From IMG/VR virus record IMGVR_UViG_3300020118_000164, positions 29,368 to 93,367 of that record: a DNA stretch of 64,000 bases; one strand, given 5' to 3'. The DNA is from a virus. Shown here in pieces: positions 9,950 through 44,412 of the stretch. The first letter of the stretch is position 1. Each line of letters begins with the position of its first letter. The position numbers and the translations under genes are program-made. The notes under the pieces were generated by a model that was not told the origin of the DNA, did no database searches, and saw nothing but the letters and a program-made list of their open reading frames with translations.

Positions 9950-12871
9950 GTGCGGTGCCTCTCGTTTCTGCTCGCCGCCGGATTGCTCTGCGGAGCCGCG
10001 GTCCTACCCGCCCAAGTGATTCAGATCCCGCCGCGTGGAACTGTCGCGCAGCTCCCGGCTCCGAGTTCGGCGCTAAAGGGCCGCATCCGCTCCGTCACGG
10101 ACGGCGCAACGGCCACGGACTGCACGGCTGGCGGCGGTTCCTACGCCGTCCTGTGCATCGACACCGGAACTGCATGGACTGTAGGCGCGGTTGGCCCGAC
10201 AGGGGCGCCTGGTGCGCCAGGAGCGACGGGTACCGCGGGGGCGGACGGTAAGACCGTGCGCAGCGGTATCGGCGCGCCGTCGTCCGGCCTTGGAGTGGAC
10301 GGCGACTTCTATATCGACACCGCGAGCAGTTCAATCTACGGGCCAAAGACGGCCGGGGCGTGGGGCTCGTCTACGCTTCTGATAGGACCGCCCGGCGCCA
10401 CGGGAAGCACTGGCGCCGCCGGCGCTACGGGGGCCGCAGGCGCCAACGGCTCGACATGGTACACGGGCAGTGGCGCGCCTTCGAACGGCACGGGAGTAAA
10501 CGGCGACTACTACTTCCGAAGCTCGACGGGCGAGGTCTACACCAAGACCGCCGGCTCTTGGGGATCTCCGATCGCCAGTCTAATCGGACCGACAGGCGCC
10601 GCTGGGTCGCCGGGAGCTACGGGTGCAACGGGGCCGCAGGGTCCGCCGGGTCCGGCGCCGAGCGGAGCGGCAAACCAAGTGCTGGCGACGCCCGATGGCG
10701 CCCCCGGAACGGCAGTCCTGCGCCCCTTGGTGGCGGCCGACGTGCCGACCCTGAATCAATCCACGAACGGCAACGCAGCGACCAGCTCGGATGGGCTCAC
10801 GAGCGCGACAGGGACCGCCCCGCTGACCCTCTTGCTCAACAGCAAGGCGCTGATCGGGTCTATCTTGATCACCCCCGCCAATCCTGGCGGCGCCGTGGCA
10901 CTTCAGGCTTCGACTCCGGGCTCGACGCAGACCGGCAACTTAAACATCTCTGGCGCGGGCCTGTTCGGCGGCCCTCTCTCCGGCTCCAACCTCTCCGGCA
11001 CCAACACCGGAGATCAGACGATTACCGGAACAGGTGACGTCACGGGCTCAGGCACGGGCTCAATCGCCTGGACGATCGCCAGCGGGGCCGTCACTCTCGC
11101 AAAGATGGCAAACATGGCCACCGCATCATTTCTTGGGCGCAACACGGCCGGCACCGGAGCGCCGGAGGTTCTCGGCACTGCCACAGTGAAAACCATGCTT
11201 GGTCTCTCCGGCACCAACTCAGGAGACCAGGTAGTACCCGCAACCACGACCGGGACGGCGAGCAATTGGTTCAGCGCCTATGACGCGACGACGGGGGCGT
11301 TCACGAAGTCCCGCCCATCCTGCGCCGATCTCTCCAATGCCGCCGCGAGCTGTGCCACGGATGCCACGAACGCGACGAACCTCAGCTCAGGGACGATCCC
11401 GGCCGGCCGCATGCCAGCGTTCGCCGGCGACATGATGACTTCTGCGGGCTCCCTCGCCACGACGGTCGGCAAGATAAACGGCGTGTCCCTTGCCGGGCTC
11501 GCGACGGGCATTCTCAAAAACACCACAACTACCGGCTTTCCGAGCATTGCCGTCGCCGGCGACTTCCCCACTCTTAACCAGAACACGAACGGCAGCGCGG
11601 CGACGCTAAGCACGCCGCGTGCGATCTACGGCAACAACTTCGACGGGAGCGCGGCGCTCGCCCAGGTCATCGCCTCAACCTACGGCGGCACCGGCAACGG
11701 CTTCGCGAAGTTCAGCGGGCCGGCTTCCACGGAGAAGACGTTCACCTTGCCGAACGCGTCGGCGGCGGTCCTCACCGACAACGCTGCCGTGACGGTAGCG
11801 CAGGGGGGCACCGGCGTGGGCGCCATCGCGGCCCATGGCGTCGTCATCGGCAACGGTACCTCCGCCGTCAACGTCACCGGCGCCGGCACCGCTGGCCAAG
11901 TGCTGACGTCGAACGGCGCCGCGGCTGACCCGACCTTCCAGGCGGCGGCTGGCGGCCTCGCGAATCCCCTGGCGGCTGGGAGTCTCTCCTCTATGCCTCT
12001 CCAGGTTGTGCAGGCGGGGACGGGCCTCTACCAGCCGGCGACGAACGTGCTCGGTCTGGGAGCGAACGCTGTTGACGTGATGCGCCTAAACTACCTCGCA
12101 TCGGCCGTTGATTACTTCAACTTCACTCCCGCCGCTACGGCGAGCCCAGCGACGATCACGATTGCCGCGGCCGGTTCCGATTCCAACATCAACATTCGCC
12201 TCGCACCTAAAGGCACCGGCGGCACCGACCTCCAGGATATCTCCGCCAGCGCACAACGCCTCTATTTCGACCGCTCAACGAGCGGTGCGCCGGTCGTGTT
12301 CCGGAACGGTGCCGCGCTGGTGATTCAGGACAATGATGGCACCTATACCAACTCGACCTTGCAGGCCGGACCCTATGCCCAGCAAGGCGGCGCCGCGAGT
12401 CTCTTCAGGGGAGTGCAGATCGGCAACGGGTTTCAGCTCAACATCTCAGACGGTACGGACTACAATCGCGGCCTCGCCGCTGTAACCGGCGCGACAGGAC
12501 TGCGCTCAACGGATGGCAGCACAGGCGTCGGCTTCATCGCGTCATCGCGGCAGCGATTGACGAAGACCGCCGCCTATACGGTGCTCGCGACGGACAGCGG
12601 CGCGGTCTTCAACAACCTGGGGGCGGCGGGCCAGGTCATACTCACGTTGCCTGCTTGCGGGGCCGTCGGGCTGGCCTATGCCTTCGTCGTCGCTACGGCC
12701 CAAAATCTCCAGGTGCTCGCCGTAGGGTCAGACAAGATCTATGACGGCAATACGGCATCAGCGGCGGCGGGTCACATGGACTCCTCCTCGATCGGCACCC
12801 GCATGGACTTCATCTGTGCATCCACCAACTTGTGGTCAACCGTCGTAAGTGGTACCCACACCATAACGTAG
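9950..12871 (+). CDS. Collagen-containing fibre protein with N-terminal signal peptide
   Basis: Gly-X-Y tracts, two GAPS..GV.GD.Y..KTAG.WGS repeats, Gly/Thr/Ala-rich fibre repeats; MRCLSFLLAAGLLCGAAVLPA N-terminus. Confidence 0.8.
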   Translation: MRCLSFLLAAGLLCGAAVLPAQVIQIPPRGTVAQLPAPSSALKGRIRSVTDGATATDCTAGGGSYAVLCIDTGTAWTVGAVGPTGAPGAPGATGTAGADGKTVRSGIGAPSSGLGVDGDFYIDTASSSIYGPKTAGAWGSSTLLIGPPGATGSTGAAGATGAAGANGSTWYTGSGAPSNGTGVNGDYYFRSSTGEVYTKTAGSWGSPIASLIGPTGAAGSPGATGATGPQGPPGPAPSGAANQVLATPDGAPGTAVLRPLVAADVPTLNQSTNGNAATSSDGLTSATGTAPLTLLLNSKALIGSILITPANPGGAVALQASTPGSTQTGNLNISGAGLFGGPLSGSNLSGTNTGDQTITGTGDVTGSGTGSIAWTIASGAVTLAKMANMATASFLGRNTAGTGAPEVLGTATVKTMLGLSGTNSGDQVVPATTTGTASNWFSAYDATTGAFTKSRPSCADLSNAAASCATDATNATNLSSGTIPAGRMPAFAGDMMTSAGSLATTVGKINGVSLAGLATGILKNTTTTGFPSIAVAGDFPTLNQNTNGSAATLSTPRAIYGNNFDGSAALAQVIASTYGGTGNGFAKFSGPASTEKTFTLPNASAAVLTDNAAVTVAQGGTGVGAIAAHGVVIGNGTSAVNVTGAGTAGQVLTSNGAAADPTFQAAAGGLANPLAAGSLSSMPLQVVQAGTGLYQPATNVLGLGANAVDVMRLNYLASAVDYFNFTPAATASPATITIAAAGSDSNINIRLAPKGTGGTDLQDISASAQRLYFDRSTSGAPVVFRNGAALVIQDNDGTYTNSTLQAGPYAQQGGAASLFRGVQIGNGFQLNISDGTDYNRGLAAVTGATGLRSTDGSTGVGFIASSRQRLTKTAAYTVLATDSGAVFNNLGAAGQVILTLPACGAVGLAYAFVVATAQNLQVLAVGSDKIYDGNTASAAAGHMDSSSIGTRMDFICASTNLWSTVVSGTHTIT

Positions 12872-12885
12872 AGGAGCGAGGGTCC

Positions 12886-13278
12886 ATGCGCCAACTCACC
12901 GCCTTACTCACCATGCTAATGACCCTCGCCAGTCCCGCGGTCGCGGCCGTCCGGCCTTGCACCTCTGCGCTGGTGACCGCAGGGCTCTGCAATAGTACCA
13001 GCGACGTTCTCGTGAGCTACTCCCTCAGCACCGTAGACCCTGACGGTGCCGGCCCCCGAGTCGCCATGGCCACCCAGTTCTCCGAGGGCTGCGCCATCAC
13101 CTTCGACTACCAGGCCATAATCAACGGCGTAGCGAACCCGGAGACCAAGAGCGCCTTCTGTGACCGGGTGATGAAGTCGGTACTATTCAAGAGTTTTGCC
13201 GATCGCTACTACAACGCGCTCGCCGAAGCCACGAAGCAGCAGACGATCGTCGCGACGCCGGCGGACATCGTGCCGTAG
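12886..13278 (+). CDS. Secreted Cys-containing protein of the fibre module
   Basis: GAGGAG RBS; MRQLTALLTMLMTLASPAVA signal; 4 Cys. Confidence 0.65.
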   Translation: MRQLTALLTMLMTLASPAVAAVRPCTSALVTAGLCNSTSDVLVSYSLSTVDPDGAGPRVAMATQFSEGCAITFDYQAIINGVANPETKSAFCDRVMKSVLFKSFADRYYNALAEATKQQTIVATPADIVP

Positions 13279-13281
13279 CGC

Positions 13282-13310
13282 TTGACGCTCGCCGCGCACC
13301 ATGCTATGGT
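13282..13310 (+). promoter_or_regulatory. Promoter TTGACG-N17-TATGGT with operator A (13298-13310)
   Basis: Operator overlaps the -10; ATG at 13317. Confidence 0.75.
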
Positions 13311-13316
13311 ATGTCC

Positions 13317-14777: not shown

Positions 14778-14785
14778 CCATCTGC

Positions 14786-17672: not shown

Positions 17673-19013
17673 ATGCGCACGAACACCTCCGCCGTCCAAG
17701 TCGCTGTCACTCATGAGGGAGCCAAGGCCGGGCATCAGAAGCCGGTCGAGGCGCTTCTGCGTGCGGTCTCTACCTGCATGCTCTGGGAATCGACCTTCTA
17801 CGAGTCCGGTTCCGAGATCGCCAAGAACATCGAATCCCTCTGCGGCCAGGTGAGCGCGGAAGACTTGGCGGCTGTGGCCGTCGAGGCTCGCCAGCGGCTG
17901 AACCTCCGGCACGTCCCGCTGTTCCTGGTGCGCCAGCTCGCGAAGCTCCACCGCGGGCCGATCGTCGGTGACACCCTCGCGGCAGTCCTGCGCCGGCCGG
18001 ACGAAGCGACGGAGTTCCTCGCGCTCTGGTGGAGGGATGGGCGCGGAGAGACCGTCAAGCTCTCCGCCCAGGTCAAGCGCGGCCTCCGTCTCGCCTTCTC
18101 GGGATGGGATGAGTACCGGCTCGCCAAGTACGCCGGGGCCGGCGACAAGATAAAACTCCGCGACGCTCTTTTTCTGAGCCATGCCAAGCCGAAGGATGAC
18201 GAGCAGGCCGCGCTGTGGAAGCGGCTCATCTCTGGTGAGCTGACGCCGCCCGATACCTGGGAGGTCGCACTCTCTGCCGGCGCCGACAAGAAAGAAACAT
18301 GGGAACGCCTTCTTCGGGAGCGCAAGCTCGGCTATCAGGCGCTCCTGATGAACCTGCGGAACATGACCGATGCGGGAGCTGATCCGGCGCTCGTGCGGGA
18401 GGCGTTGCTCGACGGTCGCGGGAGTGAGCGGATGTTCCCGTACCGCTTCTTGGCCGCGTCGCGGGTTGCCCCGCAGTACGCTGACGCCCTGAGTGAAGCC
18501 ATGCTCAGTTCGCTCAGCGGTCATGAGAAGCTGCCGGGCGCCACCGTCCTGGTCGTGGACGTATCGGGATCGATGGAAAGCCCCCTCTCCGCCAAGAGCG
18601 CGATGCATCGCCTCGACGCGGCCGGCTGCCTTGCCGTGATCCTGCGCGAGGTCAGCGAGTCGCTGCGCGTGTTCTCGTTCAGCAACGCAGTCGTCGAGGT
18701 CGCCAACCATCGCGGATTGGCGCTGAGTCACGCGGTCACGGAGAGCCAGCGTCACGGCGGCACCGAGTTGCGCGCCGCGCTTGAGGCCGTGCGCAAGGCG
18801 ATCCCGAACGCGCATCGCGTCATCGTCATCACCGACGAGCAGTCGCAGGATGGCATCGCCCCGGCCTGGGCGCCGCACTCTTACCTAATCAACGTCGCGC
18901 CGTACAAGCCCGGACTCGAGACCTCCCAGGGCTGGACGCGCATCAACGGATGGTCAGACCGGGTCGTGGACTGGATTCTGATGGAGGAGGCGACCGCGCC
19001 CGATGGGCAGTGA
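17673..19013 (+). CDS. Ro60/Rsr-like TROVE + vWA domain RNA-binding protein
   Basis: LWE.TFYESG, RHVPL, RPDE..EFLA, DEY.LAKY, LRDALFLSHAKP, TWEVALS, ALLMNLRNM, FPYRFLAA; MIDAS DVSGSM and ITDEQ. Confidence 0.93.
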   Translation: MRTNTSAVQVAVTHEGAKAGHQKPVEALLRAVSTCMLWESTFYESGSEIAKNIESLCGQVSAEDLAAVAVEARQRLNLRHVPLFLVRQLAKLHRGPIVGDTLAAVLRRPDEATEFLALWWRDGRGETVKLSAQVKRGLRLAFSGWDEYRLAKYAGAGDKIKLRDALFLSHAKPKDDEQAALWKRLISGELTPPDTWEVALSAGADKKETWERLLRERKLGYQALLMNLRNMTDAGADPALVREALLDGRGSERMFPYRFLAASRVAPQYADALSEAMLSSLSGHEKLPGATVLVVDVSGSMESPLSAKSAMHRLDAAGCLAVILREVSESLRVFSFSNAVVEVANHRGLALSHAVTESQRHGGTELRAALEAVRKAIPNAHRVIVITDEQSQDGIAPAWAPHSYLINVAPYKPGLETSQGWTRINGWSDRVVDWILMEEATAPDGQ

Positions 19014-20847
19014 GTCAACCTCCGCCGCACCCGCTGACCGCCTAACCCTTGACCAGCTAGTCGCGGCCATCCGCCGTCTACCTCCCGGCCTGGAACAGGC
19101 GCGGGCGGTCGCGGCGTTCGCCAAGAGGTATGAGGGGCGGACAAGCGCCGGCCGAGATCCGGCGCAGCGCCGGAAGTATGCGGGCGATCCGTGGGCCTAC
19201 ATCGCGGACGTGTTCGGCTATCCAGCGACGCCTCAGCAGGAAGAGGCGCTCGCGCTCATGGAGGCGCATGACCGCGTCCTTTTGCCCTCCGCCAATGACC
19301 TCGGGAAGACCTGGCTTTTGGGAGAATACGCAGTTTACTACATGGACGCTGTTGGTGCGCAGCTCGATGAAGATACGGGCGGCGAGCAGGGCGCCCGCGT
19401 GCTCCTCCCCGGCCCGGATCACCCGACCATCCGTGCCACGATCTACAACAAAATGCTCCTGATGGCCGAGCGGGCAGAGGCCCGCGGCTTCAAGATGCCA
19501 GGCAGGCGGTCTCTCGATTCCGTGCTCTGGCGCGTGCGTCCGGAGTGGGAGGTCGAGGCGTTCTCCCCGCCGCGGCAAGTTGGCCAGGAGGTCGCCCATA
19601 CCGCGAGCGGCCGGCACCACAGGAACCAAATCGCGCTCATCGAGGAGGGGCAGGGCGTATCGGAGCGCGTCTGGAGAGCGGCCGAGGGCATGTGCGCCTC
19701 CCGCGGAAACAAGATCATCAGCTCGTTCAACCCCACAGAGGCGAGCGGCCCGACCTACCAGCGTTCCCGCCGGAACTATATCGTCATGCACTGGGATGCC
19801 TTCGAGCACCCGAATGTCGTGCAACGGAAGATCGTCATAGAGGGCGCCGTGGACTATCTGGTGACGGATGACCGGGTGAGGGAGTGCCGTGACCGCGGTC
19901 CTTATCCTGGCACACAGCCGGACGCGACCTACGGTGACTTCATTTACGCTGCCCCGACGGTTGAGGAGACGCGTGCCGGCCTCGTAGAGCGAGGCCCGCG
20001 AGAGGATGGCATCCTGGGCCATCCCGACGCGACGCCGCACGTCTGGAGGCCCACGGGGGCTTTCGAGGCCCAAGTCCGCGGGCGCTGGCCTAAGTCGTCG
20101 GACACCGGCCTGTTCAACCCTGGCGCATGGGATGCGGGTGTCGAGCGCTGGCTCTCTGGACAAGATCCGGTCATCCTCCCGGACCGTATCGGCGTGGACG
20201 CGGCCAGAGAGGGTGGCGACGACTGCTGCTACTGTCCGGCATGGGGAGAGACCTCGGCCGCGCTCCTCCGCGCCCATCACCAGGCGCAGAAGGATGGTGA
20301 CTCTCGGCTCCTGGAGGAACTCCGCATCTCGCGCCGAGTTCGCGTCGGGGAGATCCGCGTCGCTCCCAAGGGCGATGGGCCGCTCGTGGCAGAGGCCATC
20401 TTCAAGGTCTACCCATCCTCGCCCTGGGTAGTCGATGAGGGGAGCGTAGGCACCTCCGTCCTCGACCACGCCGCGAAGGTCTTAGGCGCGTCGGCCTCCG
20501 GCATCAGCTTCTCCGGCAAGCGTCCAGACCGCATCCCCGGCGAGCGGCTGGTCTACAACATGCGCGCCTCGCTCTACGTCCGCGCCGCGCTGCTCTTGGA
20601 TCTCGGCCTCGCCGATCCCCCGGATGATCCTCTCCTACGGGAAGAGGTGCTTGCCCACGAGATCGTCAAGTGGGAGGCCGTAACGGTCAAGGAGTCTCCC
20701 GGCGGCAAGAAAGAGACCAAGTATGCCGCCCGCGTCCTGGAAAAAGCCGAGGTCAAGAAGAAGATCGGCCGCTCCCCAGACCGGGCGGACGCGTTCGTGC
20801 TGGCGCTCGCTCCGGCGAAGGCTAAGGGTCGCGGGTTGATCTGGTGA
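19003..20847 (+). CDS. terL: Terminase large subunit
   Basis: Walker A SANDLGKT, Walker B LIEEGQG, nuclease IGVDAAREGGD and GRSPDRADA. Confidence 0.88.
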   Translation: MGSESTSAAPADRLTLDQLVAAIRRLPPGLEQARAVAAFAKRYEGRTSAGRDPAQRRKYAGDPWAYIADVFGYPATPQQEEALALMEAHDRVLLPSANDLGKTWLLGEYAVYYMDAVGAQLDEDTGGEQGARVLLPGPDHPTIRATIYNKMLLMAERAEARGFKMPGRRSLDSVLWRVRPEWEVEAFSPPRQVGQEVAHTASGRHHRNQIALIEEGQGVSERVWRAAEGMCASRGNKIISSFNPTEASGPTYQRSRRNYIVMHWDAFEHPNVVQRKIVIEGAVDYLVTDDRVRECRDRGPYPGTQPDATYGDFIYAAPTVEETRAGLVERGPREDGILGHPDATPHVWRPTGAFEAQVRGRWPKSSDTGLFNPGAWDAGVERWLSGQDPVILPDRIGVDAAREGGDDCCYCPAWGETSAALLRAHHQAQKDGDSRLLEELRISRRVRVGEIRVAPKGDGPLVAEAIFKVYPSSPWVVDEGSVGTSVLDHAAKVLGASASGISFSGKRPDRIPGERLVYNMRASLYVRAALLLDLGLADPPDDPLLREEVLAHEIVKWEAVTVKESPGGKKETKYAARVLEKAEVKKKIGRSPDRADAFVLALAPAKAKGRGLIW

Positions 20848-21884: not shown

Positions 21885-22111
21885 CGGCAGAGTCCCGAAC
21901 CGTCGCCGTGCTACTCTGTAGCGGATGGATCTTGCTCACCTGGGGGGTGGCCGAGCTGACATCTCGCTGGGCGTGGCCCATCGGGCTCGGGCTCGGGCTG
22001 CTCATTGCGGGCTGTGCCTTCGGGTGGGCGATGATCCGGGAGGCTCGCCATGAAGCAGCGGCTCTTCGCGGTCCCCAACCTCCTGCGGGCGGCATCCCTC
22101 CCGAGTACTGA
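21881..22111 (+). CDS. Small two-TM protein preceding portal
   Basis: Two hydrophobic helices; position typical of HK97-like head operons. Confidence 0.6.
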   Translation: MTAESRTVAVLLCSGWILLTWGVAELTSRWAWPIGLGLGLLIAGCAFGWAMIREARHEAAALRGPQPPAGGIPPEY

Positions 22112-24402: not shown

Positions 24403-24523
24403 GCGTGGCGGATTCTGGAGCTTTCCCCGGTGGCACACTTGCCCCGTGGAACTCGGCCTCCAGTCGATCCCCTTTAGCTGTCTCCCGCTCGCGGTGCAAA
24501 CCAAGCGCCGCGAGTTGGGGGGC

Positions 24524-33618: not shown

Positions 33619-36600
33619 GTGAGCGGCGACACCGTCACCCGCACCGTCCGGGTCACCATCGACAGCAGCTCCGGCAAGGTAGCGATGTCGGACATGAAGA
33701 GCGGCGGCGATGCCGCCGCCGCCTCCATGCGTTCGCTGAGCACCGCAACCAATACCATTCAGGAGCAGTACCGCCGTCTCGCCTCCACTCTAGACCCGGT
33801 CATCGCGGGGCATATCAAGTATGAGAACGCGCAGCACACCCTCGCTGAGGCGCTGAATCGCGGGATCATCTCTCAGACGCAATACAACGCGCAGCTCGCC
33901 GCAGCCAAGAGCAAATTCGAGGATGCCGGACAGGCGGCTGGCGGATTCGCGGAGGCCCTGAGCGGCAAGATCAAGGACGCCCTCCTAGAGCTGGCGGCCA
34001 TGGCTGTTGGCTTCCTGACGGTTCAACAGGCCGTCGAGCAGCTCAAGCAATCCGTCGAGGACTTCGGCAAGTTCCAGGACAGCCTCCTCGCCATCGCAGC
34101 GAACACGGGGGCCGCCGCGGATCAGATGCGGCTGCTCTCGGACGCCTCTAAGGATATCGGCGCCAATACCAAGTTCGGGGCCGACCAGGCGGCGGACGGC
34201 CTCAAGGTCCTGACCAAGGCCGGTTTCTCGGTTTCTGATTCCATCGGCCAGCTCCCGCAGGTCGAACACCTCGCGATCATCGGCACCATCGGCCTCGCGG
34301 ATGCGGCCGACAACCTTGCGAAGACGCTGGAGCGCTTCAACCTTCCGGCGTCAGAGTCGCAGCATGTCGTCGATACTCTGGCCACGGTCGCAGCGCACAG
34401 CAGGGTATCGATAAGCGCCCTCGTGGACACGATGAAGATCGCAGGCCCCACCGCTGGCGCGATGGGTCTGCAATTCAACGACGTGGCCGCGACCCTTGGG
34501 GTCATGGCGAAAAACGATGCCGCCCTCCGGCAGATGGGCGGAGCCGTTGTCACCGCCCTATCGGCGCTTTCTATCGGTAGTAAGAAGGTCACCGACGACC
34601 TAGGGCGCCTCAATCTCAAGCTTGCCGATGTAAGCCCGCAGACGCACTCGTTGAGCCAGATCATCATCACTCTCGCGCGCGCGGGCCTAGACGCTACGAC
34701 AGCGTTCGATATTTTCGGTAAGCAGGCCGGGGGGGCGATCCTCAGTCTTACCTCGCACGTTCCGCAGCTCCTGGCAATGCAGGAGGCCATCAAGGGCGGC
34801 TCCGGCGCTGGCGAGCACATGGCCGCGATCATGGAGAGCGGCGTGCAGGGGTCGCTTGACCGCGCCGCGCAGGCCGCTAAGGAAGTCCGGCTAGAGATCG
34901 GCGAAGGCATGGCGCCGGCCATTCAGGTCGCGGCGGACGATTGGGCGCGGTTCGCTCGCGAGAGCCTAGCGGCGGGGAATGCGCTCGGCACAACGCTCGG
35001 CTCCGCGGTCGGGACGCTCTCCGATGTCCTCCTCCTGCTCGCCAGGAACATCGATCTAGTCAAGTCTGGGCTTGAGATATTCCTACTCTTGAAGGCGGCT
35101 GAGTGGGTCAACGGATTTGCAATATCCGTAACAGCGCTTATCGCGAAGCTAACGGCAGCAACCGTGGCAGAAGAGGCTGCCGCCGGCTCAACCGTCGCGA
35201 TCGGCGGCGCCCTCGTCTCGGTAACGGCCGAGACAGAATCCGCAACGTCGGCAACGCAAGGATTCCTTGCGATTGGCATCACCCCCCTGGCCGGCGGCCT
35301 GCTCGCCCTCGCGGGCGTCCTGCTCTACGCCAACGAGCAGGTCAAGAACTGGGGCGCGACGATGCAGGCCGAGACGGAGCGCATGGTCAAGAGCGTCAAT
35401 GACCATGCGCGCGTCATGACTGATCTGAAGACGAAATATGACGCCCTCACGAGCGCGACCAAGATTCAGGCCGAAGCTGAGAAGCAGATGGCGGCGGAGG
35501 GCGTCACGGCTGACTCCCCCCGCGGCAAGGCGATCCTACTGGAACAGCAGCTCGCGGCGCGGCGTGATCTAGCGTTCGCGATCCCGGACTATACGGCCAA
35601 GCTAACGGCGGCGCAGGAGAAGGAACAATCTGAGTCCAAGACCATTGCCGACCTCAATACGCAGCTCGCCAAGCGGAAGGAGTACATTTCCAGCGGGCGA
35701 GGATTGGTAGAATCGATCTATTTGCGGGGTGATGTCGGCAACATCGCGGCGGGCGGCGGAGATCCCGGAGTCAAGGCGCTTGATCAACAGATCGCGGAGC
35801 ATACCAACAGGCTTAAGGAGGCGCAGCAGGAGACGAAGCGACTTGCCGCGGAGACCGCCGGACTCGGTGAGGCGCTCAAGTCGCTCCCGGTGCCCAAGCC
35901 GGCCGCCCCGAATCCAATCATCCCGACGACGAAGGTCAACACAAGCGAGATCGACAAGGCCAACGCGGCGGTCCGGGCCTATGCAGAGGGGCTTTCTGAT
36001 CTGAACACGAAGGCGCGGACCGCATCGGACGGGCAGGAGAAACTCCTCGCCTCGCTCGGCGGCGGCATCATTGCCTACGAGACCGAGCAGCGTGCGCAGC
36101 AGCGGCAGGCGGCGATCGATGCGGAGACGCTCGCACTCACCAAGTTGCAGCGCGCCGAAATCGACAAATTAACAGACGCGCATGCCAAGCTGCTGCAACA
36201 GCACAAGTATGCCGATGCGGCGAACGTAGCTGCCAAGATCAAGACGGAGAGCGCGGCCTTCGACGAAGAGACGGCGAAGCTCACCGGGCTGGTCGCCAAG
36301 AAGGTGGATGACAAGCAGGCGACTGCGGATGGCCTGGCGATCCTGCAAGAGAATCTGCAGTTCTCGATCGCCAGCCGCGAGGCGGAAGCCGCGCTGGCAG
36401 ATGCCAAGGCGCAAAGCACGCAAGCATCCCGAGATCTATCTGTTCAGCTTGAGATCGAGGCGGCCTTCCGCAAGCAACTGCCGAAGACGCAGGAGGAGAA
36501 GGACGCCGCCGCCGCGCGGATCATCGGTGCGCGCACCTTCCTGGAATTCCTCAAGAGCACCACGGCCGAGGAGGATCGACGCCTAGCGGCCGAGAAGCAG

Positions 36601-39600
36601 ATCGCCGCGATCATCGCCAAGGGCAAGGACAACCACGAGCTGATCGAGGCGACGCAGAAGTACGGCGCGAGCGTTGCCGCCGTGCTCCAGAAGTATGGCC
36701 TTCTAGACGACGCGTCGAAGGCCCTGCTGATCCATGAGCAGGCCATCGCCATCCAGAAGAAGGACGGCGGAATCCTTGCCGATATCGAGGCGGAGTTGAC
36801 CGCCTATCAGCAGCGGGCCGATGCCGCCGGATTAACCGCCTCCGCCGAGGAGCGGACACGCGCGGCCGCTCATGAATTGCGAGTTGATTTGGCCAGCGCC
36901 TTCGACACGCTCTCTACCTCCCTCGGTGGCTCCTCGACGCTTCTCGGCAAGCTCACGGCCGACATGGGCAAACTGGTGACGGCGATCGATACCGCCGCGA
37001 CCGCTTCTAGCAAGATGCAGAAGGCGCTCGGCGCCGCAGCGGCCATCAACATAGGCGCCACGCTCCTTACGGATCTCGGTGTCGGTGCCACGGCCAAGAC
37101 CGGCGGCGCGTCCGCCCTTGGCGGTAGATTGGAGGGCAATTACGCCGGTGTCGGCGGCATCGTGGGCACGATCATCGGCGGCATCATCGGGGCCATCATC
37201 GGTGCCTTCGCGGGCGGCGTAGGCGCGGGACCCGGCGCTGCGGCCGGCAGCTCCATCGGCGGCGCGATCGGTTCTATCCTGGGCTCGCTCATCTCCAAGG
37301 CTGGCGATTCCGCCTCTGCGTCGCTGACGGCATCCGGCAACATCATTGTCGGCGAGACATCGCGCCAGCTCAACGGCGCGGTCAAGGATGCGCTCACCAA
37401 CATCTTCAAGGGCCTCCAGACCGAGATGGCATCTCTCGGCCTCTTCTTGGAGGGCATCCCGCTCATCGATATCAAGGTGCGCGACAACATCATCCGAGTG
37501 GTTGTCGGAGAGGTTGTCCGCACGTTCAGCTCTATGCAGGATGCGATCTCGTTCGGGATCAGCGAAGCGGTCAAGCAAGCGGCCACGTCCGGCGGCCATC
37601 TCCCGCCCGAGGTGCTAGAGGCGCTCAAGAAGACGACGGCCACGGACATGACCGCGTTGCAATCGGACATCGATTTCGCGATGAAGATTGCGAACTACGG
37701 CGTGCCGCAGGTAGCTCAAGCCTTGTCGAAGGCCGTATCCGATTTCTTCGTCGAGATGCAGCGCGACGTGTCACTCGGTATCGACACGACCAAGTCGATT
37801 GCCCAGTTCGCTCTATCAATCCAACAAGAAAAGGACAAGATCCTCGGGATCAATCGGAACCTGAGCCCCGCGGATCAAATGAAGGCGGACGCCGCAGCGT
37901 TCAATCAGCGGGCGACGCTCATCAAGGCGCAGGAAGCATTGGACGTAGCGGATCTCAAGCTCAAGGAGGTAGACCTAGAGCAGAAAATCGCGATCCTCAA
38001 GGCCGAGCAACTCGCGACCAAGGGCCACATCGATCTCGCCAAGGCGCGGGTGCAGACCGATGTAGCCGTCGACGGTGCCTCGGTCAATTCCCTCGGAGCG
38101 CTTCAGGCCGCGCTTGATGCCACGCTTGCCAACATCGCAGCGGCGCAGGCCGTCATCGATAGCATCACCCTGATCTCTGACAAGGAGTTGGCGGATGCCC
38201 TGAAGCGCCTCGGCAAGGTCGGCAAGGGTACAGGCGGTGGCGCCGATCCCGCGCAAGAGGTCCGCGACGCCCTGGAGCAGGCGCGTATCGCACGGCTCGG
38301 AGAGGAAGGCAAGGCCCTTGCCGACCTGGCGACGAAGTATGCCGATCTCAACAAAAAGGCCGGCAAGCACGCGGACCTCCTGGCGCAACTCGCGGTCGCG
38401 CAGCAGCAGGAGATCAACGTCCTCACCCAGCAGGAGAAGATCAAGCTCGCGCCGTTCGCGGGGGATGCGTTCTCTGGCGGCCGTAGTGCATACGCCCAAA
38501 CTCTCGCCGATGAGGAGGCGCAGCAGAAGGATCTGCTCTCCGTCGCCGGGCAGCTCGCGCTCTCCGTGCGCGGTGTCACGGCGGCGTTCACCGAGATGCA
38601 TCGCATCCTGGGCTTGCAGGTCGCCTCAGATCTCGGCATCGAATCCGCCGCGCTTGTCCTCAAGTACCAGACCGAGGGACAGGCGGTCGATTTCCTGAAG
38701 ACGCACATGGACGAACTCGGCGTCAGCGCGGATCAGCTCGCCGGCTACATGAGTGAGCTGTCGGACGCCACCGAGCTTTCGATCTTCGGCAAGATTCAGG
38801 GCTACATCACGGATGAGCAGACCCTGGCCGCCTACAAGGAAGTCCAGTATGAGCTGGACATCGCGCGGGCGAAGGAAGAGCTGGCGCTGGCCTACACGGC
38901 TGGCACACTCACCCTGGAGGCATACAACCGGCTCGGAAAAATCATCTATAGCCTGCCGGACACGATGCCTGCCGCTGCGGCATCGGCAAGCAAGGCGGCG
39001 GCCACTCAGTCGAGTGCGGCGCAGACGCAACTTCAGGCCGCGCAGGCGAACCAGGCCGCAGCGGATAAGTTGACGCAGTGGCAGCAGAGTCTGCTCACCA
39101 ACCCCGAGACGTCGCCGCTCACGCCGCGCGCCCAGGTAGCGGAGTCGAAGCGCCAGCTAGAGGATCTCCTCGCCAAGGGCATCGGCGGCGATACGACAGC
39201 CCGCGACCAGTTCACCCAACAGGCGGACGCCTATCTCAAGCTCTTCAGCGATACCTTCGGCCGGACCGGGGCCTTCGCCGCCGAGGTGCTCTCAGTCTCG
39301 GCCGAAGCGGACCGTCTCAAGGCGACGCTCACCGGGAATCCGGCCCAGAACTTGGCGCTCTTCCCGACCAACGCTGGATACGCAGCCGGAGGGAGCGGGA
39401 GCGATTACAAGCCGCCCACCGTGTCCGGCTCCGGGATTGTGCCGCCACCCCCTCTGCACGTCGTGCGCGACACCGGCGACCAGCTCGACGCGGTCAAGGG
39501 CGCCCTCGGCAAGGACGGCGATATCTACAAGGTCATCCGCCAGGGCGGGATCGATGCGGCCACGAACGCGGCGACTACGATCGACCTGCACAAGAGAACC

Positions 39601-39729
39601 GTCCAGCACTTGAAGACAATCTCGGACACCCTCCAGGCAGTACAAAGCTCGCTGAACAGGAACCTTGAGCTGCTGCGTCCAACCGGCGGCGGCGGTCGCC
39701 TCAGACCGAATGAAAGGGTGGCGGCCTGA
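33619..39729 (+). CDS. Tape measure protein (TP901-like core), 2036 aa
   Basis: TKFGADQAADGL..L.KAG core, Ala-rich helical body, Gly-zipper hydrophobic segment. Confidence 0.93.
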   Translation: MSGDTVTRTVRVTIDSSSGKVAMSDMKSGGDAAAASMRSLSTATNTIQEQYRRLASTLDPVIAGHIKYENAQHTLAEALNRGIISQTQYNAQLAAAKSKFEDAGQAAGGFAEALSGKIKDALLELAAMAVGFLTVQQAVEQLKQSVEDFGKFQDSLLAIAANTGAAADQMRLLSDASKDIGANTKFGADQAADGLKVLTKAGFSVSDSIGQLPQVEHLAIIGTIGLADAADNLAKTLERFNLPASESQHVVDTLATVAAHSRVSISALVDTMKIAGPTAGAMGLQFNDVAATLGVMAKNDAALRQMGGAVVTALSALSIGSKKVTDDLGRLNLKLADVSPQTHSLSQIIITLARAGLDATTAFDIFGKQAGGAILSLTSHVPQLLAMQEAIKGGSGAGEHMAAIMESGVQGSLDRAAQAAKEVRLEIGEGMAPAIQVAADDWARFARESLAAGNALGTTLGSAVGTLSDVLLLLARNIDLVKSGLEIFLLLKAAEWVNGFAISVTALIAKLTAATVAEEAAAGSTVAIGGALVSVTAETESATSATQGFLAIGITPLAGGLLALAGVLLYANEQVKNWGATMQAETERMVKSVNDHARVMTDLKTKYDALTSATKIQAEAEKQMAAEGVTADSPRGKAILLEQQLAARRDLAFAIPDYTAKLTAAQEKEQSESKTIADLNTQLAKRKEYISSGRGLVESIYLRGDVGNIAAGGGDPGVKALDQQIAEHTNRLKEAQQETKRLAAETAGLGEALKSLPVPKPAAPNPIIPTTKVNTSEIDKANAAVRAYAEGLSDLNTKARTASDGQEKLLASLGGGIIAYETEQRAQQRQAAIDAETLALTKLQRAEIDKLTDAHAKLLQQHKYADAANVAAKIKTESAAFDEETAKLTGLVAKKVDDKQATADGLAILQENLQFSIASREAEAALADAKAQSTQASRDLSVQLEIEAAFRKQLPKTQEEKDAAAARIIGARTFLEFLKSTTAEEDRRLAAEKQIAAIIAKGKDNHELIEATQKYGASVAAVLQKYGLLDDASKALLIHEQAIAIQKKDGGILADIEAELTAYQQRADAAGLTASAEERTRAAAHELRVDLASAFDTLSTSLGGSSTLLGKLTADMGKLVTAIDTAATASSKMQKALGAAAAINIGATLLTDLGVGATAKTGGASALGGRLEGNYAGVGGIVGTIIGGIIGAIIGAFAGGVGAGPGAAAGSSIGGAIGSILGSLISKAGDSASASLTASGNIIVGETSRQLNGAVKDALTNIFKGLQTEMASLGLFLEGIPLIDIKVRDNIIRVVVGEVVRTFSSMQDAISFGISEAVKQAATSGGHLPPEVLEALKKTTATDMTALQSDIDFAMKIANYGVPQVAQALSKAVSDFFVEMQRDVSLGIDTTKSIAQFALSIQQEKDKILGINRNLSPADQMKADAAAFNQRATLIKAQEALDVADLKLKEVDLEQKIAILKAEQLATKGHIDLAKARVQTDVAVDGASVNSLGALQAALDATLANIAAAQAVIDSITLISDKELADALKRLGKVGKGTGGGADPAQEVRDALEQARIARLGEEGKALADLATKYADLNKKAGKHADLLAQLAVAQQQEINVLTQQEKIKLAPFAGDAFSGGRSAYAQTLADEEAQQKDLLSVAGQLALSVRGVTAAFTEMHRILGLQVASDLGIESAALVLKYQTEGQAVDFLKTHMDELGVSADQLAGYMSELSDATELSIFGKIQGYITDEQTLAAYKEVQYELDIARAKEELALAYTAGTLTLEAYNRLGKIIYSLPDTMPAAAASASKAAATQSSAAQTQLQAAQANQAAADKLTQWQQSLLTNPETSPLTPRAQVAESKRQLEDLLAKGIGGDTTARDQFTQQADAYLKLFSDTFGRTGAFAAEVLSVSAEADRLKATLTGNPAQNLALFPTNAGYAAGGSGSDYKPPTVSGSGIVPPPPLHVVRDTGDQLDAVKGALGKDGDIYKVIRQGGIDAATNAATTIDLHKRTVQHLKTISDTLQAVQSSLNRNLELLRPTGGGGRLRPNERVAA

Positions 39730-42089
39730 TGTACGGCGCGACCCCATACGGAGGACTGACCTACGGCGGCTCGCTCACGAGCGGCGCCATGGCCTCGCCG
39801 GTTACGGCGCTCATCGCGGGCAACCTCCACATTCTGTTCGAGCACCTCCTCTGGCTGCAACCGTACAATCCGGTTACCGGAATCCCGATCGATCTGTTCG
39901 TTTCAGGCGGATGGTTCAAAACCGCAGGCGGAGATACCTTCCCGACCGGAGAAGCCGCAGCGCATCAGCTCTTCATCGGCCATCTAGTCCAGCCGCCGAA
40001 CCGCGAGTCGCGAATCCTGTCCAACGGGGAGGTCAACACTGGCGCCTCGACCTACGGCAACTGCGTGATTGCGGACTCACGGCGCGAGCTGACGCAATGG
40101 CTAAGCTTCGGGTGGAAGAACGCGACGGCCCGCCACTTCATGGGCGATCCATCATGGCCCCTGAGCAGCTTTGCGGAAGTGTTCCACGGAGTCTCAACGG
40201 CGCTCGACCCCGAGGTAGACCAGATGTCGATAGGCTTGCAGGATGTCGTCGCCAAGCTGCAATCTCGGGACTATCAGACCAAGCGCTACGCGGGCCGTGG
40301 GGCATGCGTGCGCTTGGACGGAGCGGCATCCTATCTCTACACCGGCGCGACCTCCTGCCCGATCGGCGGCATGACCATCGGCATCCGGTTCCGGCCCACA
40401 GCAGCCATCGCGACGGATGAGCATATCGTCGGCTGGCACAACTCCACCGGCGCCGGAGAGCGGCGACTCCATACCGGACCGGGAAACTCCGTCACATGGT
40501 CGGTGCGGGACGATTCGAGCAACGGATACTCGGTCACCGCGGCCGGCGTGCTCGGCCCCTACAACTGGATTGACCTGTGGGGAGTGCTCGATACCGCGGC
40601 AATGCGGATCAGCCTCTATGACGGCTCCTCCCCGGACACGCCGATCGCTCAAGCATCAATCGCCGGCACCTACGTCTCCTCGGTCCTGACCTCGTTCGCG
40701 GTTGGGCGCCTGCCGGACTTCGCGACAAACTTCCTTCTGGGCGACGTGGACGAGATTACGGTCTGGTCGCGCGCTCTAAGCACGGTAGAGATCGCGCAAT
40801 GGACCGGCCAGCGCGCACCCTCCGGCACTACGGGGCTCGTCTATCAGTGGTCACTGACGGAAGCTACCGGGACGATCGCCTATGAGTCGGCCGGCGCGGG
40901 GCCGGATCTAACACTCGCATCCTGCGCATGGGTGGACAGCCTGACCGGCGGCGTCGAGCTCCAAGGGAAGTGCATCCCGAAGGGCCGCGGGATCGTGCGG
41001 GAAATCAACCCCGTCCTGCTCTCCGCGATCGACCGTATCTATCAGGTCGCGGAGGAGTTTGACCATCTCGCGACCGACGTTTCCGGGCCACTTCTGAAGG
41101 ATCGTGGCATCCGGGTCTGGACCCTCAAGGGCACCTATCCCGATCCCTGGGCGGCGACGCCCGCAACGGGCGAGTACATGGAGATCCCGGCGATGGGCCT
41201 CATCCGGCTCGGCTCATCGCCGGTCGGGCAGTTGACGTGCGACCCCTACCTAACCGCCGCAACCGACCTGCCGGGCTGCGTAGCGGGTATCACGACCGGG
41301 GACGGTGTGCTGACATCGGGCGAGTTCGACGCGGCGAGCGCTGCGGCCTTGCCTGCCACGGACGGCGTAGGCGTGCTCTCCGGACTCGACCCGACGAGCG
41401 TCGATGCCGTTCTGCTGAAGTACCTAGCCAGCGTCAAGGGCTGGCGCGGGTCGAATCCCGTGGGCGCCCTCGCCTTCGGGGTGATCGCACCGCCAGAGAC
41501 CCTCACTCCCTCAGCGCAGGCCGGACCGGATGACTTCGCGCTCGACGGGATCAAGCCCGTGTTCACGCTCCCGGCGGCCCGTGCGGCCCTGGTGCGCTAC
41601 CGGCCTTACTACCAGACGCAGCAGCCCACGGCGCTTGATCCCTTGCTCACGGAGGCCGAGAAGCAGGACTTGGGGCAGCAGTTCCGCTCCGTCTCCACCC
41701 CCGAGGATCTCGCCGTGCTCGGGGCGGACTCCGCGGCCGAGCTGGCGGTGCGGGATACGGTGCTCGACTCTGCGGCCGATGCCCAGACGCAGGCCACCCT
41801 GGAGGCGGCCTGGCGCTCCAAGCCGCGACGGACGGACTACCTGCCATACTCTGAGCCGGTGCCACGGTTCTACGTCGGGCAGGTGCTGACGATCACGATG
41901 CCCGTGCTGGACTACGATGACGGCAAGAACGTCATCGTGACCGCGGTTCTAGCCGACGACGGCACGGGCGCGCACGGGTGTGAGGTGACGGGCGAGTTGA
42001 AGTTTGTCGGCGGCGATCTGATGCTAACGGGTGATGGCACCGGGCACGCCCTACTGGGCGACGGTACCGGGTCCGGGCTCGTAGAATAG
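39729..42089 (+). CDS. Tail tip/hub protein with LamG-like domain
   Basis: GDVDEITVWSRALS..EI LamG motif; GK.IP...G.V..INPV. Confidence 0.75.
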   Translation: MYGATPYGGLTYGGSLTSGAMASPVTALIAGNLHILFEHLLWLQPYNPVTGIPIDLFVSGGWFKTAGGDTFPTGEAAAHQLFIGHLVQPPNRESRILSNGEVNTGASTYGNCVIADSRRELTQWLSFGWKNATARHFMGDPSWPLSSFAEVFHGVSTALDPEVDQMSIGLQDVVAKLQSRDYQTKRYAGRGACVRLDGAASYLYTGATSCPIGGMTIGIRFRPTAAIATDEHIVGWHNSTGAGERRLHTGPGNSVTWSVRDDSSNGYSVTAAGVLGPYNWIDLWGVLDTAAMRISLYDGSSPDTPIAQASIAGTYVSSVLTSFAVGRLPDFATNFLLGDVDEITVWSRALSTVEIAQWTGQRAPSGTTGLVYQWSLTEATGTIAYESAGAGPDLTLASCAWVDSLTGGVELQGKCIPKGRGIVREINPVLLSAIDRIYQVAEEFDHLATDVSGPLLKDRGIRVWTLKGTYPDPWAATPATGEYMEIPAMGLIRLGSSPVGQLTCDPYLTAATDLPGCVAGITTGDGVLTSGEFDAASAAALPATDGVGVLSGLDPTSVDAVLLKYLASVKGWRGSNPVGALAFGVIAPPETLTPSAQAGPDDFALDGIKPVFTLPAARAALVRYRPYYQTQQPTALDPLLTEAEKQDLGQQFRSVSTPEDLAVLGADSAAELAVRDTVLDSAADAQTQATLEAAWRSKPRRTDYLPYSEPVPRFYVGQVLTITMPVLDYDDGKNVIVTAVLADDGTGAHGCEVTGELKFVGGDLMLTGDGTGHALLGDGTGSGLVE

Positions 42090-42099
42090 AGGAGACTGA

Positions 42100-44412
42100 A
42101 TGCGCATCGTTCGAACTCTTGGAACGGCCACGGCGCTGGCGCTCACCTTGGCGTCAGCGGCCGCCGCCCAGCCATCTGACGTATGGAGCCTCAACCACAA
42201 TAGCTCGCCCGCGTCTACCGTACGCTTCTGGACGCAATCAGGAGCCGGCGTCCGAGCGCAGTACGTCACGCTTGCGGATATCCTCCTGGGCACCGTTGTC
42301 AGCACGGATGACCGGCTGAACCTCAAGGTCGTGGTCGGCGACCCGCTCACCGGAGCGACGAGCCTAGGGGGCGCCGATGACACCGCGACCATCCAGGCAG
42401 CCCTAAATTATGCCGCCGGCCTTGCCCGGCAGACCGAGGTCGTAATGCCGGGTGGCACCTATAAGGCTTGCGGCGTCAAGATGCGCTCGCGCGTGGACTT
42501 CGGCGGGCAGGGTCGCGCAACCAAGATACAATCCACCGCGGGATGCACGACGGGCGTAATCATCTTGAATACAAGCTCTACCGAGCGCTTCCGGTTACAC
42601 GATCTATGGGTGGACTGCAACGGGGCGAGCACCTCTGGTTTCGTTATCAATAACGACGGCGGAACGTTTACGGGAGCCGACCCTGAGATTACGCTAGAAG
42701 ACCTAGATGCCACCAACTGCGCCCTCGACGGATTCTCATTGACCTCGCGCGGACTCCAGGGCCATCGGCTGCGCTCGCGCGCGAACACGCGGGACGGATT
42801 CGCCCTACTGGCGGGATCTACCGTCAGCATGTCGGATGGGGTGTTTACCAACCTGTCGGCGGACGCCTCTGGACGGGATGGATTGCATATCGAGTCTGTA
42901 GAGAACTCGGTTACAGGAATGAAGATTGGCGAGTCTGGGCGCTACGGCCTGTACCTCACGAGCGGTGGCAACTGGAACACGCTTTCGACGATCGCGATCG
43001 ACAACACCGGATACCCGAGCTTCGCGAGCGGAACGCCGGTACGGATCGAGACGATCGACAATCAAGTGGACGGGATTTTGATCTCCCGCGGCGTCGGTGC
43101 CGCGATCGTCCTCACCTCCACCTCGGCCCGGAACAGCGTTCGGGCGACCGTGCTCCCGGTCGCTGGCGGCGGGACGCTCACTTATGGCGCACTCCTAACG
43201 AGCGGCAGCACAGGCAATGACGTGCGCCTGACCGCCAACCTGAGCGGTACGCCGGCCATGACGGGCCTCTTCGATCCGGCGTCGGACCTCACCGCGAACT
43301 TCGCGACCGGCAACGGCGCCGACGTGAACATGACCTCCATTACGAGGAACACGACTGGCTCCGCCGCGAAGTGGACGACGGCCCGCACGCTGGCCGGGAA
43401 TTCCGTAGACGGTTCAGCGAACGTCGCATTCTCGAACAAGCTCATCGTTCAGGGCACGAGTGATGCCGGTCTTTCGGCGGCGCAGTTCCTGGGCTCGCTC
43501 GCGACGGGGATCGTCAAGAACACCACTACAACCGGCGTGCTGTCGATCGCCGTCGCCGGAGACTTCCCCTCTACGCTGAGAGGGTGGACCTACACAAGCC
43601 CCAACGTCTCGCTCGCGACGGGCACCGACAAGGTGGGCATCGGTACGGCCTCTCCTGACGTGTCGCTTGCGGTATGGCTCAACTCTGCCACTCCGCCAGC
43701 GGGGCCGTCCGGGACGATTACCCACCTCGGCAGCGCAGACGGCGCGAATACGATTGCCCTCCTCGACGCGGGCGGCGCGGCTCAGGGAGCGCTCTACTTC
43801 CGCCGCGCCGATACCTCGATAGCGAGCCCGTCAGCTATCCAGGCTGGCGACGCCATTGGGCTAATCGGCGCTCTGGGATATGGCGCGACGGCCTATTCAG
43901 CGGCCTCGCGTGCCGCGATTCAATTCGTGGCGGATCAGACCTGGACCGATTCCGCCCAGGGAACTAACGCCCAGATCCAGACCACTCTGGACGGCACGAT
44001 GACGAAATCAACGAAGCTGACGATCAGCACGAGCGGCCACCTGCTCACCACGGGGGCGGCGCCATCGGTCGCATGTACGGGAACCGGAACATCCCCAACC
44101 GCGCCATCCATCGCGAGCGGCGGCACTGATGCCAACTTTACGATCATCATGCCGACCGGCACCGGCGCGCCGGGATCTACGGGGACATGCACGGTGACGT
44201 TCTCGACCGCCTACCTGACGAACAAGCCGCAGGTGATCTGCACGCTCCAGGACGGCGCCAGCGCCTGGGGCAATGAGGCGGTTCTGCGGGTGAGCACGTC
44301 GTCGCTCAGCGCGCCAGTGATCGCGTGGACAAACGAGGCGAGCGGTGCTCTTACCGGACTCACGGTCTCGACCTCCTACCAGATCGCGTGCATCACAATG
44401 GGCAACATCTAG
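42100..44412 (+). CDS. Tailspike/fibre with beta-helix (pectate-lyase-like) domain and N-terminal signal peptide
   Basis: DDTATIQAALN..V.MPGGTY; repeated DG(F/L) beta-helix rungs; KVGIGTASP; MRIVRTLGTATALALTLASAAAA signal. Confidence 0.8.
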   Translation: MRIVRTLGTATALALTLASAAAAQPSDVWSLNHNSSPASTVRFWTQSGAGVRAQYVTLADILLGTVVSTDDRLNLKVVVGDPLTGATSLGGADDTATIQAALNYAAGLARQTEVVMPGGTYKACGVKMRSRVDFGGQGRATKIQSTAGCTTGVIILNTSSTERFRLHDLWVDCNGASTSGFVINNDGGTFTGADPEITLEDLDATNCALDGFSLTSRGLQGHRLRSRANTRDGFALLAGSTVSMSDGVFTNLSADASGRDGLHIESVENSVTGMKIGESGRYGLYLTSGGNWNTLSTIAIDNTGYPSFASGTPVRIETIDNQVDGILISRGVGAAIVLTSTSARNSVRATVLPVAGGGTLTYGALLTSGSTGNDVRLTANLSGTPAMTGLFDPASDLTANFATGNGADVNMTSITRNTTGSAAKWTTARTLAGNSVDGSANVAFSNKLIVQGTSDAGLSAAQFLGSLATGIVKNTTTTGVLSIAVAGDFPSTLRGWTYTSPNVSLATGTDKVGIGTASPDVSLAVWLNSATPPAGPSGTITHLGSADGANTIALLDAGGAAQGALYFRRADTSIASPSAIQAGDAIGLIGALGYGATAYSAASRAAIQFVADQTWTDSAQGTNAQIQTTLDGTMTKSTKLTISTSGHLLTTGAAPSVACTGTGTSPTAPSIASGGTDANFTIIMPTGTGAPGSTGTCTVTFSTAYLTNKPQVICTLQDGASAWGNEAVLRVSTSSLSAPVIAWTNEASGALTGLTVSTSYQIACITMGNI

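Follow-up and report, generated by a model that had tools for sequence, protein, structure and literature searches.

Four proteins encoded in the late structural modules of a soil phage appear to carry genuine, cleavable signal peptides (SPs) for the general secretory (Sec) pathway and type I signal peptidase (SPase I). Comparison of orthologous sequences makes this the best explanation of their N-termini, and we regard export, cleavage and disulfide bonding of these proteins as highly probable. The phage is IMG/VR virus record IMGVR_UViG_3300020118_000164, a single contig of 93,367 bp with a 127-bp terminal repeat (record class: direct terminal repeats, completeness estimate 100%), and near-identical DNA is present in soil metagenomes from several studies, with no RNA dataset among the sequencing runs listed for it. 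The window is the final 64 kb of this contig (64,000 nt, positions 29,368 to 93,367), and coordinates below refer to it. The proteins are a collagen-like fibre and its small partner, an immunoglobulin (Ig)-like protein encoded directly after the capsid gene, and a spike of the tail module, as follows (predicted cuts are marked here and below by a slash):

9950-12871, plus strand: collagen-like fibre of 973 amino acids (aa); predicted SP 9950-10012, 21 aa, ...LPA/QVIQIPP
12886-13278, plus strand: fibre partner of 130 aa; predicted SP 12886-12945, 20 aa; 4 mature Cys
27012-27725, plus strand: post-capsid protein; SP 27012-27080, small alpha/beta domain, C-terminal Ig-like beta-sandwich, Cys pair C159/C215
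42100-44412, plus strand: spike/fibre of 770 aa; SP 42100-42168

SPs were called by a crude rule of our own combined with ortholog comparison, rather than by SignalP. The rule asks for a basic n-region, a hydrophobic h-region of 8-15 residues, and small residues at -3 and -1; these features were found in all four open reading frames (ORFs) named above and in three additional small ORFs. A preliminary description, made from the sequence alone, had proposed signal peptides for these same four genes, and our translations of 9950, 12886, 27012 and 42100 gave N-terminal strings identical to those it had presented: MRCLSFLLAAGLLCGAAVLPA then Gln at +1 for the fibre (which has a GTG start), MRQLTALLTMLMTLASPAVA then Ala for the partner, MMRRNVISLAVLGALLLTLGLGA then Gln for the post-capsid protein and MRIVRTLGTATALALTLASAAAA then Gln for the spike. 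Its statements that Gln occupies +1 in three of the four, and that several of the proteins contain paired Cys, also hold, the mature parts having 6, 4, 2 and 8 Cys, respectively. The sequence AGGAG or AGGAGG lies 5' of each of the four annotated starts; at 27012 a second ATG, at 27015, is better spaced from its AAGGAGG. True starts downstream of the h-regions, the objection that the description had raised against itself, found no support, as no in-frame downstream start within 50 codons has a Shine-Dalgarno (SD)-like site.

The rule flags 6 of the 135 called ORFs, or 7 when the 12886 start is used, against a chance expectation of ~1.6 (from internal windows) or 2.1 (from shuffled N-termini). 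By count alone this enrichment is modest, and the main support lies in conservation across orthologs of the signal-peptide property rather than of its sequence. Gln was the commonest residue after the predicted cut, occurring there in 15 of 28 Ig-like family members and, counting by eye, in ~34 of 52 spike relatives. Despite this Gln at +1, the strong SD sites and sigma-70-like promoters presumably argue against a Bacteroidota host, and hosts outside the Bacteroidetes may have a similar Gln +1 preference.

In the partner family the property was kept throughout. Six orthologs were found on IMG/VR and JGI contigs of 45-69% guanine-plus-cytosine (GC) content (L102, L103, L105, L106, L107 and L109), and all seven proteins (alignment A5) have an SP and four Cys, including an invariant C-x9-C. 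Their SPs, of 18-27 residues, start with basic residues, continue into a strongly hydrophobic core and end in small residues at the cut; identity is 34% over the SP region vs. 65% over the next 40 residues, and by this measure the partner N-termini behave as signal peptides usually do. Wherever it is on the contig (in the window and in L102, L103, L105 and L106), an SP-bearing collagen-like fibre precedes the partner. The mature fibre N-terminus is kept at the predicted cut, being A/QVIQIPPRG here and A/QLIAVPPHR in L103 (ASA/QLIAVPP), as is a TDC...VLC Cys pair in each of these two fibres, and the fibres of L102, L105 and L106 likewise keep their mature N-terminus; the 6 Cys of the mature fibre fall into three close pairs. 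An SP on both a fibre and its downstream helper is what would be expected if the fibre folds outside the cytoplasm. The two genes stand directly before the head-tail adaptor gene in L102, L105, L106 and L107, while in L103 they stand before tail genes, directly after a homolog of the second of two SP-less genes found directly 5' of the fibre in the window:

9129-9500, plus strand: SP-less gene (phrog_1084)
9476-9946, plus strand: SP-less gene with a collagen-like start

The products of these two genes are candidate virion-side adaptors of the fibre. Searches with the partner itself against Pfam, PHROG, Atlas and known folds gave no match (the best hit by VIA, Z 4.9, was a generic long helix). 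For the fibre there was no PDB sequence match and no relative in IMG/VR for its C-terminal 323 aa, and matches to residues 1-130 come mostly from the collagen/GDFY repeat, not from a true N-domain. A promoter-like site at 13282-13310 on the plus strand (TTGACG-17-TATGGT with TG) directly follows the partner stop, indicating that the fibre pair ends a transcription unit; the same site coincides with a proposed palindrome regulon.

The post-capsid protein belongs to a family in which the SP is sometimes present and sometimes not. Its AlphaFold2 model has a predicted local distance difference test (pLDDT) score of 76 overall, with the SP as an N-terminal helix, and of ~90 over residues 115-236, which form a beta-sandwich that matches Ig-like domains. 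Homologs of this sandwich number 298 and are mostly leaderless proteins of 150-200 aa, some of them fused to DUF2190, which we take to be a domain commonly annotated as head decoration. The family occupies the post-capsid slot in L021, L030, L074 and L102, and among the contexts examined SP-less homologs hold that slot in L021, L030 and L102. We found the SP in 29 of 195 family members sampled (~15%), and a Cys pair able to bridge the sandwich in 25 of the 29 SP forms vs. 0 of the 166 SP-less forms. Two sub-architectures hold both forms, the Met of the leaderless form falling at the cleavage site of the other and the two aligning across the whole mature length. Thus P0018 (SP, ...LLAQ/NVSNYMEQGG, Cys/Cys) is 59% identical to P0061 (MSYNTSNYTEQGG, Gly/Val), and P0014 is 62% identical to P0034, with both Cys in the SP form only. 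The 27012 product combines the position of a head-decoration protein (a head-module gene beside the capsid gene) with an Ig-like fold, and the DUF2190-fused homologs may lend indirect support to its predicted binding to the capsid surface.

The spike consists of an N-domain, a putative right-handed beta-helix (~85-430), a fibre repeat (~410-491), a trimeric helix (505-660) resembling that of mosaic adhesive trimer (MAT) fibres, and a tip with four invariant Cys (C659, C697, C714, C764). Residues 505-660 match the solved trimeric beta-helix of the Bdellovibrio fibre Bd1334 (PDB 8OML, which comprises Bd1334 residues 818-1151) at E 9.6e-6, and there are weak matches to tail-spike PHROGs. Searched exhaustively with HMMER, this modular protein had 2319 relatives. 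Our rule found SP-like N-termini in 52 of the top 149 cluster representatives, many ending ...A/Q, and in an alignment (A2) of the 23 sequences with the four-Cys tip nearly all have an SP once mis-called starts are allowed for. SP-bearing homologs occupy the tail modules of seven distinct IMG/VR contigs of 44-64% GC (L094-L098, L100 and L101; L099 duplicates L098 and was not counted). Their neighbours there are homologs of the tape measure, of the 786-aa protein encoded at 39729, and of the products of 44345, 45491 and 46405, at identities down to 21-29%, and the order tape measure, 786-aa protein, SP-spike is kept in L094, L095, L096, L098 and L100. Given this span of GC content and these neighbour identities, the SP has been retained in the spike slot over long divergence. 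Two leaderless beta-helix relatives, P0125 and P0208, begin M..KIS.DP..., by eye like the I[RC]DLP... that follows the SP in many SP-bearing relatives. A motif, R-T-I-[TS]-C-T-A-P-L-L-C, is conserved ~50 residues past the SP in the spike homologs P0126, P0127, P0134, P0142, P0145, P0148, P0151, P0165 and P0182, where it is likely to form another disulfide loop; the spike of the present phage lacks it.

The three further ORFs flagged by the rule lie downstream of the tail module and had no family match:

46768-47109, minus strand: small SP protein, 4 mature Cys
48125-48484, minus strand: small SP protein, 2 mature Cys
49694-50020, minus strand: small SP protein, 8 mature Cys

The first two share F.LSGLV directly after the SP, the first has ...LAASC, a non-canonical lipobox, and the third has its 8 Cys within 78 mature residues. 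Mature Cys counts of all seven SP proteins are even and non-zero (6, 4, 2, 8, 4, 2 and 8), whereas counts are odd in 10 of the 20 SP-less structural proteins, and Cys is absent from the capsid protein and tape measure. The first half of the reading in the preliminary description, that these are real Sec-type signals on exported and probably disulfide-bonded proteins, is well supported by comparison, with the SP kept in partner, fibre and spike orthologs, the SP associated with a Cys pair in the Ig-like family, and even Cys counts in 7 of 7 proteins.

Other classes of signal were considered and rejected. None of the four proteins has Cys at +1, nor the lipobox [LVI][ASTVI][GAS]C at the cleavage site, which excludes lipoprotein signals (SPase II). 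For twin-arginine (Tat) signals, the RR present in the 27012 product and some of its orthologs is not conserved (P0006 starts MKQN.., P0008 MRMK..), and the partner-family SPs, with the lengths and hydrophobic cores given above, differ from Tat signals, whose h-region is long and weakly hydrophobic.

The remaining features of the head and tail modules, all without SP in the case of structural proteins, are these:

19003-20847: large ORF at the usual terminase position, its identity confirmed by no search
22050-23423: portal (PF04860)
24446-25405: prohead protease
25421-27004, plus strand: major capsid protein of the HK97 family (PF05065, E 2.9e-35), no SP, 0 Cys
28719-29651: head-tail adaptor
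33619-39729, plus strand: tape measure (PF10145), no SP
39729-42089, plus strand: 786-aa post-tape-measure (hub) protein with a LamG domain, no SP, 8 Cys
44429-45286, plus strand: SP-less gene 3' of the spike, kept beside SP-spikes in relatives
45491-46420, plus strand: SP-less gene 3' of the spike, likewise kept
46405-46830, plus strand: SP-less gene 3' of the spike, likewise kept

The structural context claimed earlier was correct: 27012 begins 7 nt after the PF05065 capsid gene, and 42100 begins 10 nt after 39729-42089. Among parts of virion type, SPs are confined to those that other phages add last (spike, fibre, decoration) and are lacking in the capsid protein, portal, protease, adaptor, tape measure and hub, a pattern that attachment after a holin breach would fit. 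The structural-module positions of the SP genes are kept across phages of 44-69% GC. Around 27012 and 42100, simple consensus scans for promoters and terminators found nothing that exceeded chance, and the complete genome has no match to a tyrosine integrase, resolvase or large serine recombinase; lysogeny "morons" of the Lom or Bor type were rejected on these two grounds. The absence of a detectable tyrosine or serine recombinase suggests that the phage is probably lytic. The 786-aa LamG protein adjoins the SP-spikes in all relatives, and the three genes at 44429-46830 possibly encode other baseplate or receptor-binding parts. The gene at 17673-19013 on the plus strand, just 5' of the putative large terminase ORF, codes for a Ro60/TROVE plus vWA protein (PF05731, E 9e-11). 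Neither the ORF at 19003-20847 nor the 27012 product had a tblastn match among 50,697 cultured phage records.

A lysis cluster lies further downstream:

56554-57015, plus strand: GH24 endolysin without SP or signal-anchor-release (SAR) sequence
57012-57338, plus strand: lysis membrane protein with N-terminal transmembrane helix and coiled coil, putative holin or spanin
57353-57658, plus strand: lysis membrane protein of the same layout, putative holin or spanin

Because it has neither SP nor SAR, the endolysin requires a membrane lesion to exit the cytoplasm. No lipobox o-spanin was seen near the endolysin. On contig L097 (17965-19440) a lipobox protein (..SLGLGGC) is encoded directly before homologs of the two lysis membrane proteins; it is likely an o-spanin and hints at a diderm host. 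A class-3 lipase (59004-59897, plus strand; PF01764, E 1e-25), ~1.3 kb past the lysis genes, could be an outer-layer lytic enzyme. The genome had no match to DsbA or to signal peptidase S26.

These observations can be assembled into a route by which the proteins might reach the virion. Host Sec would translocate the spike, fibre, partner and Ig-like protein unfolded, their SPs would be removed, mostly before Gln, and folding, trimerisation and disulfide bonding would follow in the periplasm. The SP-less capsid, connector, tube, tape measure and hub would be assembling in the cytoplasm at the same time. The holin-type lesion of the inner membrane, opened for the SP-less endolysin, would then mix particles with periplasmic appendages, which would dock as a final assembly step. 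We put this whole chain of export and docking forward tentatively, as possible, its docking step being read solely from which parts carry SPs. In its broader form, as a mode of extracytoplasmic maturation in this soil lineage and others, with spike, fibre and Ig-like decoration exported, one of them alongside an exported helper, and docking only after the holin breach, we hold the proposal to be rather doubtful. Several points weigh against it. We know of no tailed phage that builds virion parts by export, and in searches confined to open-access papers no tail fibre, spike or decoration protein of a tailed phage was described as having a Sec signal. The 44429-46830 region offers SP-less receptor-binding candidates, so that the virion could do without the SP-spike, and even a periplasm in the host is presumed. 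The beta-helix of the spike scores under curated Pfam cut-offs (PF13229, 21.5 vs. 25.9 bits; PF12708, 16.5 vs. 27), and mature N-termini, compared by hhalign with leaderless fibre N-termini, gave a probability of 1.4%, so that their likeness is by eye only. Cysteines alone prove nothing, since the SP-less hub has 8 as well. The independent-pairs test of SP against Cys pair was underpowered, with a 118-column domain on whose tree 9 SP and 6 Cys-pair changes yielded only 2 supported independent pairs, suggesting few, not many, independent events behind the association. Finally, action on the envelope in the manner of MAT fibres or Llp (receptor masking or destruction, adhesion) would be a simple alternative.

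Of the two fates that the preliminary description had offered, virion attachment at lysis is one of at least two live readings, and the other, a cell-surface adhesin or depolymerase, has equal standing. Under that alternative the exported proteins would do their work in the envelope or extracellularly, while the virion would use the SP-less proteins of the module; the exported proteins might mask or destroy receptors or exopolysaccharide (giving superinfection exclusion, protection of progeny from debris, or easier release), or serve as adhesins. We consider this, too, a possible explanation, though short of a probable one. Llp and Cor are among the phage SP proteins that act off the virion. 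MAT fibres offer a precedent in which an SP, a phage-like trimer and disulfide-bonded tips are combined on a cell surface, and the spike has a putative beta-helix of the pectate-lyase type typical of depolymerases, with Pfam scores below cut-off as stated. Many relatives are probably cellular, judging from the 52 of 149 spike-related cluster representatives with SP-like N-termini, some of them very long, and from Bacteroidota-named SP-bearing relatives of the collagen-like fibre, one on a 1.48-Mb contig. The conserved SP-less neighbours at 44429-46830 could be the true receptor binders, and other known phage SP proteins likewise act off the virion, such as Lom (PMC12309495) and the Q-rule proteins of Porphyromonas gingivalis phages (PMC10367356). 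Set against all this, the genes lie within late structural operons with no promoter or terminator signal of their own (at 27012 and 42100), their position is kept across the 44-69% GC range, and the Ig-like protein is orthologous over its full length to SP-less proteins found in the decoration slot or as DUF2190 fusions. Moreover, the SP-less homolog of 9476-9946 is kept beside the SP-fibre as a virion-side dock would be, and with no integrase match there would be no lysogen needing protection.

We rate virion docking of exported proteins and off-virion action alike, and both above the remaining explanations. A dual fate, in which some of the protein escapes Sec and is built into cytoplasmic particles with its SP uncleaved or trimmed while the rest is exported as free enzyme or adhesin, seems improbable to us. 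Very high late expression could saturate Sec, and free and virion-bound forms of a single depolymerase gene are known in other phages, but there is no second start site for a leaderless form, and the conserved Cys pairs would remain reduced in the cytoplasmic pool. We give as little credence to the view that nothing is exported and that the hydrophobic N-termini are structural helices mimicking signal peptides, which anchor trimers to baseplate or capsid or enter the membrane of the host during infection. Hydrophobic segments do occur in the tail-tip and tape-measure proteins of other phages, and in this Ala/Leu-rich genome the rule yields ~2 false positives per 135 ORFs; yet a docking helix would be expected to evolve together with its partner and to keep its sequence, whereas here the property was kept and the sequence was not (34% vs. 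65% identity). The segments also retain basic n-regions and small -3/-1 residues, vary in length over 18-27 aa, are dispensable in full-length SP-less orthologs, and accompany Cys pairs. That wrong starts or random hydrophobic N-termini created the pattern is hardly credible: the excess in count is modest (6-7 observed vs. ~2 expected), but the starts have strong SD sites, and in three unrelated families every ortholog examined has an SP. Routes other than those named here are, taken together, unlikely.

Tailed-phage assembly is, in the textbook account, wholly cytoplasmic. Conserved export signals and paired Cys are present here in three unrelated appendage-type families, all of them encoded in late structural operons. 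This case contributes a head-side Ig-like family with an SP/Cys-pair switch, a fibre and helper pair with an SP in every ortholog, and a complete genome with no integrase match. If the exported proteins join the particle, a new assembly step would be added. Recombinant receptor-binding proteins of such phages would then need periplasmic expression, host-range prediction would have to consider what the Sec, Dsb and signal-peptidase systems of the host prefer (Gln at +1 included), and virion proteomics should seek cleaved, pyroglutamate N-termini. If they are never on the particle, it would still follow that lytic phages regularly deliver large fibre-like proteins to the envelope of the host, a barely described layer of phage-host interplay, for roles that may include receptor masking, depolymerisation and adhesion. 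The pairs of SP-bearing and SP-less orthologs in the Ig-like family amount to a clean natural experiment.

Known systems each share part of this pattern. P22 gp9 and the T4 long tail fibres, trimeric beta-helix or fibre proteins at the periphery of the virion, are added last in assembly and can be joined to finished particles, also in vitro. Such late attachment is the property that post-lysis docking would need; these proteins differ in folding in the cytoplasm and having no SP. Ig-like decoration proteins (T4 Hoc and those of N4, PMC11768535) and DUF2190 proteins (PF09956) share with the 27012 product the post-capsid slot and the Ig-like sandwich, and DUF2190 fusions occur among its homologs. 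The known Ig-like decoration proteins have no SP and bind capsids in the cytoplasm, whereas the 27012 product has an SP and a Cys pair.

Bor, T5 Llp and Cor are phage-encoded SP proteins that act off the virion. Lambda Lom is likewise a phage SP protein (PMC12309495), and in P. gingivalis phages the capsid, spanin and SP proteins of unknown function follow the Gln +1 rule of the host (PMC10367356, PMC5837995), a rule described as specific to Bacteroidetes; the only other phage SP proteins that came up in the literature searched were lysis proteins. The group of off-virion proteins resembles the present ones in its Sec signals, in the location of some members among tail genes and, for the P. 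gingivalis phages, in Gln at +1. Its members, small outer-membrane proteins, lipoproteins or proteins without a known function, are in many cases expressed by lysogens from promoters of their own; here, instead, we find a fibre and spike of 770-973 aa and an ortholog of head-slot Ig-like proteins, co-operonic with structural genes and with no integrase match.

The closest known system is that of the MAT fibres of Bdellovibrio bacteriovorus, phage-like fibres for which Sec export, periplasmic trimerisation and disulfide-bonded tips are established by experiment (Caulton et al. 2024, PMC10769870). As predicted from its sequence, the spike shares with them an SP and a long trimeric body like that of phage tail fibres, and it may share the N-domain; the MAT tips, swappable, contain disulfides. 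In MAT fibres a conserved, beta-rich N-domain of ~130 aa follows the SP; the solved chains lack this N-domain, and the likeness to the spike covers its residues 505-660. An SP joined to a trimeric phage-like fibre body, the defining combination of MAT fibres, is what the spike sequence appears to encode, given its predicted SP and the match of those residues to 8OML. The difference lies in the setting: MAT genes lie on the chromosome of a predatory bacterium, which displays the fibres on its own surface, whereas the spike gene belongs to the tail operon of a complete 93-kb phage. MAT fibres show, all the same, that phage-like fibres exported by Sec and folded in the periplasm are feasible.

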